A stretch of 64,000 nt of DNA from the NCBI RefSeq assembly GCF_003334255.1, contig NZ_QOWU01000004.1, one strand, 5' to 3'. Positions 1,818-2,903 of this stretch are shown one piece after another. This DNA comes from Escherichia coli. Lineage in GTDB: Bacteria > Pseudomonadota > Gammaproteobacteria > Enterobacterales > Enterobacteriaceae. The translations under genes were made by a program, and so were the position numbers. Each line of letters starts with the position of its first letter. The first letter of the stretch is position 1. The notes under the pieces were generated by a model. The model had not been told where the DNA came from, did no database searches, and was given only the letters and a program-made list of their open reading frames with translations.

Positions 1818-2903
1818 TTAAATACTGGCAATACTCTCACGCAAAATCCGCAGCACCGTCTCTTCACCGCTGCGATTCGGGTTAATGCGAATCGCACAAT
1901 GTTCTGATTGTGGATTCGCCTGGCGAAACGTTCCGGAAAGGCGATAAAAGAGCGGCGGGATTTCATATTTCGACTCTGCACCCACCGGGTAAGGCAAGGC
2001 ACCGCGCTTTTGCGCCTCTTCCAGCACTCTGGCGGCAATCGGCTGATGAAACTCGACAATCAACACCTTCGACTGCGCATTAGCAATCACCGCGCTTTTC
2101 ACTTCCGGCACCGCACCACCGTTAAGCAAAGCCAGCAACCGTTCAGATACCCCTGCCTGCACCGCGTGCATCACTGGCGCAAACACCAGACCACGCAATA
2201 CTTCCAGCGCCTGTGCGCCCTGGATCTGGCTACCGCCGGAGTAAAGCGTGGCGCGAATACGGTTGATAACATCAGCATCGCCGACCACTGCACCAACACC
2301 CTCTGGCCCAAATAGCTTGAAGCAGGAAAATGTCGAGACATTCGCGCCGCATTCACAGCCGATTCGAGCCACCTTCATCACCGCATAGTTGTCATCGGTT
2401 AACGCTGGAACACCTGCCGCGCGCAACGTTGCCAGCACATCTGCCAGCACGTAGCTGTCCTGCGGCTGCTGGCGCGTATGCTGCACCAGCGCCGCATCCG
2501 GTTGTTGCTCGTCGACGACCTGCTTCAGTGCCGACAGGTCATTGAAATCAACAGTAATAAGCGTCAGCCCCATCTGCTCAATAATAACCCGTGTCGTCGG
2601 GTAAACAGGCGCGTCATGCACCAGAAGACGCTGCCCCGGTTTGAGCAAAGCCGCCAGCCCGGCGCGAATCGCGCCAGTCCCCGCGCCCTGCACCAGCGCC
2701 GCAGCCTGTGCGTGAAATGCATCAGCCAGCACCTGTTCCACACGCTGGGTAACGCGCGGTTGATTCAGTCCTGGCGTTAAGCCTAAATCACCGCCAGTAA
2801 GAAACTCGCTGCCGGGGAAATGGCGACAAATGCTATCCACCAGCGCAAACTGCTTTTGCTGCGCCTCAATAATCGTCAGGCTTTGCAGAGGAAACGTCTT
2901 CAT
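1818..2903 (-). CDS. yhfS: Uncharacterized PLP-dependent enzyme (SelA-like / aminotransferase fold)
   Basis: 361-aa ORF; glycine-rich segment and a candidate PLP-lysine motif (FSCFKLFGPEG); last gene of the yhfZ-yhfS cluster. Confidence 0.88.
   Translation of the reverse strand: MKTFPLQSLTIIEAQQKQFALVDSICRHFPGSEFLTGGDLGLTPGLNQPRVTQRVEQVLADAFHAQAAALVQGAGTGAIRAGLAALLKPGQRLLVHDAPVYPTTRVIIEQMGLTLITVDFNDLSALKQVVDEQQPDAALVQHTRQQPQDSYVLADVLATLRAAGVPALTDDNYAVMKVARIGCECGANVSTFSCFKLFGPEGVGAVVGDADVINRIRATLYSGGSQIQGAQALEVLRGLVFAPVMHAVQAGVSERLLALLNGGAVPEVKSAVIANAQSKVLIVEFHQPIAARVLEEAQKRGALPYPVGAESKYEIPPLFYRLSGTFRQANPQSEHCAIRINPNRSGEETVLRILRESIASI

Follow-up and report, generated by a model that had tools for sequence, protein, structure and literature searches.

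What does the yhfS gene encode? It lies in a 64,000-nucleotide stretch of Escherichia coli DNA (contig NZ_QOWU01000004.1; hereafter the window), and the first-pass annotation had claimed for its product a Ser-x-x-Lys attachment motif for pyridoxal-5'-phosphate (PLP), of the SelA/Cys-Met-metabolism type. The locus thus raises three questions: whether YhfS is a PLP enzyme, to which family it belongs, and which reaction it may catalyze among the products of the neighboring genes. On the strength of alignments, residue invariance and fold, YhfS is almost certainly a fold-type I PLP enzyme that would use K196 as its lysine. The features of the gene and protein are as follows.

1818..2903, minus strand: yhfS coding sequence, 361 amino acids plus stop, end gene of the yhfZ-to-yhfS cluster
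2292..2330, minus strand: motif FSCFKLFGPEGVG, residues 192-204, strand end and loop bearing the PLP lysine
2316..2318, minus strand: K196 codon (AAG), predicted internal-aldimine (Schiff-base) lysine
2394..2396, minus strand: D170 codon, predicted partner of the pyridine nitrogen, aligned with D186 of methionine gamma-lyase (MGL) and MetB D173, invariant
2601..2603, minus strand: Y101 codon, predicted ring-stacking tyrosine of the gamma-family type, aligned with MGL Y114 and MetB Y101, invariant
2676..2681, minus strand: G75-T76 codons, predicted N-terminus of the helix at the PLP phosphate (GAGTGA), aligned with MGL G89-M90, invariant
1887..1889, minus strand: R339 codon, in IRINP, invariant, candidate arginine for the substrate alpha-carboxylate
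1842..2141, minus strand: YhfS-like_C small domain, residues 255-354, PF22475 (1.4e-43, model positions 2-101 of 101)

The predicted PLP lysine

The open reading frame of 361 residues is confirmed, on the minus strand; the first-pass annotation had given no strand. The claimed motif is present in YhfS, where the Ser-x-x-Lys of FSCFKLFGPEGVG corresponds to S193-K196. YhfS contains the bare S..K pattern at two sites, and 39% of shuffled YhfS sequences contain one or more copies, so that it carries no meaning alone. The extended pattern S..K..G.{1,3}G.G was obtained in 0.085% of the shuffles, and its occurrence in YhfS is the single one in a six-frame translation of the whole window. Residue alignments were made using HMMER against MGL (1gc0) and Mycobacterium tuberculosis MetZ (3ndn), and hhalign against E. 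coli MetB. K196 is aligned with MGL K211, with the MetZ lysine and with MetB K198, that is, with the Schiff-base lysine of the Cys/Met-family enzymes.

Conservation was assessed on an alignment of 24 full-length YhfS members sharing 35-83% identity. Fourteen positions are invariant (A14, Q18, G75, T76, Y101, D170, N172, S193, K196, G204, G224, A232, R339 and G346), and K196 is the sole invariant lysine among the 10 of E. coli YhfS. Within FSCFKLFGPEGVG, residues S193, K196 and G204 are invariant, while conservation reaches 90% or more at F192, G199, P200 and G202.

The IRINP motif around R339 resembles the ..LLRISTGIEDGEDLI.. segment of MetB (strand LLRISTGIED) and the LRIS strand of the gamma-family. 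MetB R361 and MGL R375 are the C-terminal arginines that bind the substrate alpha-carboxylate. Because the hhalign alignment of YhfS with MetB ends at residue 261, we only infer that R339 is the equivalent of R361 and of the carboxylate-binding arginine.

Fold and structure

YhfS has the overall two-domain α/β fold of the aspartate aminotransferase superfamily. In its AlphaFold2 model (pLDDT 94.4), K196 lies just after strand 189-193, D170 ends strand 167-170, and G75-T76 start helix 74-86, all of which are canonical fold-type I positions. R339 is on strand 337-341, ahead of the C-terminal helix.

A crystal structure from 2014, PDB 4J8L, states PLP dependence in its title ('pyridoxal-5'-phosphate dependent protein YhfS'). 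Chain 4j8l_A ('Uncharacterized protein YhfS') is 100% identical to the YhfS of the window, which RefSeq labels 'aminotransferase class I/II-fold pyridoxal phosphate-dependent enzyme'. The PLP dependence of YhfS is thus correct but already known, from the RefSeq name, a Pfam family named after YhfS, and the PDB title.

A 747-residue metagenomic protein (P0121) is a tandem YhfS-YhfS fusion with two copies of the YSGGSQVQGH motif, an arrangement that is consistent with a dimeric YhfS. It was also considered as a YhfS-YhfX 'Rosetta-stone' fusion, which was rejected since both halves are YhfS.

Family placement

A profile hidden Markov model (HMM) search of YhfS returned PLP families only, and an assignment to a non-PLP family did not occur. 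The Pfam matches to the large domain are Aminotran_1_2 (9.5e-10), Cys_Met_Meta_PP (9.2e-7) and Aminotran_5 (2e-4). The Cys_Met_Meta_PP match (PF01053) reaches 28 bits and covers residues 53-239 only, or model positions 55-245 of 381. NCBIfam gave weak matches to methionine gamma-lyase, O-succinylhomoserine sulfhydrylase, the cystathionine enzymes and SufS/CsdA, all far under the curated cut-offs (for example, 41.8 vs 666 bits). Compared with the PDB, the profile of the 24 members found Cys/Met enzymes at 7e-14 to 1e-12 and cysteine desulfurases at about 1e-7. The hhalign probability for YhfS and MetB is 94.6%, over the large domain only. A Foldseek search of AFDB50 returned the YhfS family itself, Streptomyces proteins included, at 1e-40 to 1e-50, followed by a tier of homocysteine desulfhydrase, cystathionine gamma-synthase and MGL at about 1e-18.

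Among 1.84 billion cluster representatives searched exhaustively, just 284 clusters contain YhfS relatives at E<=1e-3, and many of these are fragments; with so few clusters, the family is small. YhfS is the founder of this small, separate family, which has its own C-terminal domain, PF22475. It is nearest to the Cys/Met family (PF01053: MetB, O-succinyl- and O-acetyl-homoserine sulfhydrylases, cystathionine beta- and gamma-lyase, MGL) without being a regular member, and is very probably a sister group of the gamma-family. Identity to the Cys/Met enzymes is 13-19%, and YhfS is shorter, with 361 residues vs about 380-430. Their contexts differ as well, since the Cys/Met enzymes belong to sulfur amino-acid metabolism whereas yhfS is found in an apparently catabolic cluster linked to the phosphotransferase system (PTS).

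The yhf gene cluster

In positions 1-12000 of the window the genes are ordered frlD-frlR / yhfS-yhfT-yhfU-php-yhfW-yhfX-yhfY-yhfZ / trpS-gph-rpe-dam. The neighbors of yhfS in the cluster are as follows.

2915..4219, minus strand: yhfT, membrane protein, PF10797, adjacent to genes for YhfS homologues at nearly every one of 80 loci
4231..4584, minus strand: yhfU, small DUF2620 protein with an invariant Cys52
4595..5473, minus strand: php, phosphotriesterase-family hydrolase (NCBIfam PRK09875, 1.4e-197)
5470..6696, minus strand: yhfW, phosphopentomutase-like metalloenzyme (NCBIfam PRK12383, 1.8e-223; DeoB, 4e-54)
6696..7859, minus strand: yhfX, fold-type III PLP enzyme, orthologues with PF01168 (Ala_racemase_N) and PF21279, PDB 4KBX
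7943..8305, minus strand: yhfY, PRD-domain protein
8322..9227, minus strand: yhfZ, GntR-type regulator (NCBIfam YhfZ_full, 7e-112)

The first-pass annotation had also stated that the cluster encodes PLP enzymes of two different folds. This is borne out by the fold-type I YhfS and by YhfX, whose fold type III is indicated by PF01168, the RefSeq name ('YhfX family PLP-dependent enzyme') and 4KBX. The closest named relative of Php is a phospho-furanose lactonase (2.6e-29). In YhfU, C52 is invariant in 30 orthologues, within D-Y-Y-x-G-A-C-N-T-G-G-G-G-A-L-A-M-A-I-A, and it could be a phospho-acceptor, as in EIIB proteins, or a catalytic cysteine. A relationship of YhfU to the RpiB/LacAB isomerases was set aside as a faint resemblance (Pfam E=0.16 only).

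Genomes were scanned, one per species, with an alignment of eight YhfS sequences. At least 397 species contain a YhfS relative, and the best 80 loci were analyzed further. These fall into four groups: Enterobacterales (Escherichia, Citrobacter, Klebsiella, Buttiauxella, Cedecea, Providencia, Serratia, Photorhabdus and Xenorhabdus), Pasteurellaceae, Clostridia with other Bacillota, and Fusobacteria. Searches by tblastn with the E. coli neighbors found YhfZ, YhfY, YhfX, YhfW, Php, YhfU and YhfT beside YhfS in nearly all 80. The gene order differs in Bacillota and Fusobacteria, where it is Z-Y-U-T-(extra gene)-Php-S-X-W. The cluster was found in metagenomic contigs too, at 51% and 47% identity. 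A connection with the neighboring fructoselysine (frl) genes was rejected: frlR/frlD adjoin yhfS solely in Escherichia, and the yhf cluster occurs without frl in Citrobacter, Klebsiella, [Enterobacter] lignolyticus and others. The yhf cluster is thus independent of fructoselysine metabolism.

More distant loci bear on the possible substrate. At the metagenomic locus L088 (around P0152), genes for PTS Enzyme I and HPr stand beside YhfX-like, YhfW-like, PRD and DUF2620 genes, with genes for a SIS-domain protein, a cupin-type sugar-phosphate isomerase (cupin-GPI), a class-III aminotransferase and a phosphotriesterase-type protein beside YhfS. At a second metagenomic locus, L090 (around P0160), a PRD/EIIA regulator and a PTS_EIIA_2 protein are encoded directly upstream of YhfS. 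These PTS components adjoining YhfS suggest that the yhf substrate is phosphorylated by the PTS on uptake.

The extra gene of the Bacillota and Fusobacteria encodes an amidase-signature-like protein of 340-370 residues, present in 14 of the 22 loci of these groups (for example, L066:7995-9101 and L064:9006-10001), with the motif GSSSG...GIGTDGGGSVLAPA and a Pfam Amidase match at 6e-5. A further distant locus, L089, has an Ntn-type PF03417 hydrolase in its place. The recurrence of amide hydrolases in YhfS loci hints that the substrate is amide-linked. Flanking Clostridia genes (glmS, a Ugp-like ABC transporter, a GH3 hexosaminidase and an N-acetylglucosamine PTS) occur in a few related loci only and were not counted as part of the system.

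A second type of YhfT and YhfU, 30-33% and 36-50% identical, respectively, to the E. coli proteins (window 2915-4584), was observed in some Citrobacter and Buttiauxella and in all Providencia, Photorhabdus and Xenorhabdus (loci L015, L016, L023, L027 and L030-L062). The flanking Php and YhfS are 62-88% identical to those of E. coli. YhfT and YhfU, the transport module, seem to have been exchanged together as one block.

Proposed reaction and alternatives

The best explanation overall is probably that YhfS is a PLP enzyme in an eight-gene, PTS-linked catabolic cluster, where it likely acts as a deaminating elimination lyase. K196 would form the internal aldimine with PLP, D170 would pair with the pyridine nitrogen, Y101 would stack on the ring, and the helix start at G75-T76 would hold the phosphate. 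In a catabolic pathway linked to the PTS, the cluster would degrade an amino compound that is probably phosphorylated and may contain an amide or lactone bond. Php or an amidase would expose an α-amino-acid-like intermediate, its carboxylate held by R339. YhfS would then abstract the Cα proton and most likely carry out a β- or γ-elimination to yield a 2-oxo acid, and YhfX may supply the correct stereoisomer. The PTS link is drawn from the PRD protein YhfY in the cluster and from the Enzyme I/HPr or EIIA genes near distant YhfS-type clusters. Taken together, the PTS linkage, the amide hydrolases, R339, and a gamma-family-like scaffold that lacks a conserved cysteine suggest a phosphorylated, amino-acid-like substrate.

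As for the chemistry itself, we lean tentatively, and with somewhat less than even confidence, towards elimination rather than transamination. All nearest structural relatives of YhfS are elimination or replacement enzymes, a class-III aminotransferase is already present beside YhfS in the distant L088 cluster, and the invariant R339 in IRINP resembles the carboxylate-binding LRIS strand of the gamma-family.

Several points weigh against a deaminating lyase acting on a phosphorylated intermediate. The N-terminal Tyr-x-Arg of the Cys/Met enzymes (MGL Y59/R61, MetB Y46/R48), which reaches the PLP phosphate of the neighboring subunit and the substrate carboxylate, is absent from YhfS. The MetB D-Y-S-R is aligned with D39-L40-G41-L42 by hhalign, the MGL Y-T-R stands opposite T43-P44-G45 in the HMM alignment, and no tyrosine or arginine is conserved there among the 24 members. 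In addition, the C-terminal domain of YhfS could not be aligned to the Cys/Met family (MetB) by sequence profile. Given these two differences, gamma-family chemistry is not simply transferable to YhfS. Next, all Photorhabdus and Xenorhabdus clusters have lost yhfW alone out of the eight genes (L031, L034-L036, L038, L040-L045, L048-L054, L056, L057, L059, L061 and L065 lack yhfW), so that a phosphorylated intermediate is not certain. Finally, a full-text literature search found no functional study of or experiment on YhfS, which is termed 'uncharacterized'; the sole phenotype found is a biofilm reduction of about 30% in the Keio yhfS deletion mutant (PMC11227560).

The alternative that survives best is that YhfS is an aminotransferase, transferring the amino group of a pathway intermediate to a 2-oxo acid via pyridoxamine phosphate. 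It is the reading suggested by the RefSeq name, and we consider it possible but rather unlikely.

A broader version of the lyase proposal, which we regard as doubtful, would have the cluster encode an undescribed PTS-linked catabolic pathway whose substrate is a phosphorylated amino compound with an amide or lactone linkage, such as an amino-sugar acid in N-acyl or lactonised form or a molecule resembling homoserine lactone. YhfT and YhfU would then make up a new module for uptake and phosphorylation in which Cys52 of YhfU is the phospho-acceptor, Php or, in other taxa, an amidase would open the molecule, and YhfS would be a new deaminating β/γ-lyase derived from the Cys/Met gamma-family and working with YhfX.

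It is improbable that YhfS is a racemase or epimerase with the Cys/Met fold, like Thermotoga TM1270, which would leave decarboxylation, aldol cleavage or dehydration to YhfX. Racemase activity is exceptional in this fold, and the cluster already holds the alanine-racemase-fold YhfX, for which ornithine racemase is the only NCBIfam match.

Still less probable is the SelA/NifS type, in which YhfS would be a cysteine desulfurase, a selenium or sulfur transferase, or an ammonia-lyase of the SelA clade like DgaE. Class V enzymes (PF00266: IscS, SufS, CsdA) have the local S-x-x-K-x-x-G-P-x-G-x-G in common with YhfS, and this stretch gives the Aminotran_5 match (2e-4) over residues 153-224. By this match, the local lysine motif itself resembles the class V type most, which accounts for the impression in the first-pass annotation. 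The weak SufS/CsdA matches in NCBIfam and the desulfurase matches of the family profile point the same way. However, no cysteine is found among the invariant or at least 90% conserved columns of the 24-sequence alignment, which excludes a persulfide mechanism of the desulfurase type, and desulfurase chemistry is thus largely refuted for YhfS. The SelA model PF03841 gave no match at E<=10, the SelA-like MJ0158 model TIGR03576 gave 18.4 bits vs a cut-off of 304.45, and in structure YhfS did not come out nearer to the SelA-like enzymes than to the remaining fold-type I families. Within the proposed 'SelA/Cys-Met-metabolism type', YhfS is nearest to the Cys/Met side and not specifically SelA-like.

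SelA-like enzymes (SelA, MJ0158 and DgaE, PDB 7LC0) nevertheless share fold type I and PLP with YhfS. DgaE, the D-glucosaminate-6-phosphate ammonia-lyase, is a PLP lyase that acts on a PTS-delivered phosphorylated amino-sugar acid, and it is a useful functional parallel to a possible deamination tied to the PTS in the yhf cluster. A DgaE-like elimination on an amino-aldonate phosphate is possible for YhfS by analogy, not by family membership.

The least probable alternative, a chance motif in a protein that does not bind PLP, has the frequency of the bare S..K in shuffled sequences in its favor and can practically be dismissed, given four canonical PLP-contact positions that are both aligned and invariant, the strong fold match, and the PDB title.

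With PLP dependence already on record, the remaining interest lies in the physiological role of the yhf operon, which is among the better-conserved uncharacterised operons of E. coli. Its eight genes, with at least two structures solved (yhfS and yhfX), are found in gut and insect-associated bacteria of several phyla.

Additional observations at the locus

The yhfS start codon is an ATG at 2903-2901 of the minus strand, preceded by a AAGGAAGG ribosome-binding site, and 11 nt separate it from the yhfT stop, a spacing that speaks for an operon. The operon has been listed as php-yhfSTUWX (PMC4448311). A promoter and terminator scan at the locus gave no signal above shuffled expectation. The spacer between the convergent frlR and yhfS (about 1667-1817) contains palindromes (GCCGGATGCGATGCTGGCGCATCTTATCCGGCCTAC) resembling repetitive extragenic palindromic elements and, 3' of the yhfS stop, a G/C-rich inverted repeat (CCCCTCGCCCCTTTGGGGAGAGGG...); this spacer showed no clear minus-strand intrinsic terminator.

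Among complete E. coli genomes, 5066 of 5426 (93%) carry yhfS, in two allele classes with at least 99% and with 90-95% nucleotide identity. BL21(DE3) retains just 57% of the gene, at its 3' end, annotated as 'hypothetical protein', and truncated YhfS products of 292 residues are common in databases. Two AFDB entries assigned to eukaryotes include YhfS: the 768-residue A0A077ZJH0 ('Gasdermin-D [Trichuris trichiura]') at 100% identity, and the 840-residue A0A0A2WJZ4 ('yhfT [Beauveria bassiana]') at 70% identity. Both seem to stem from bacterial contamination of the eukaryotic assemblies or from mis-fused genes in them.
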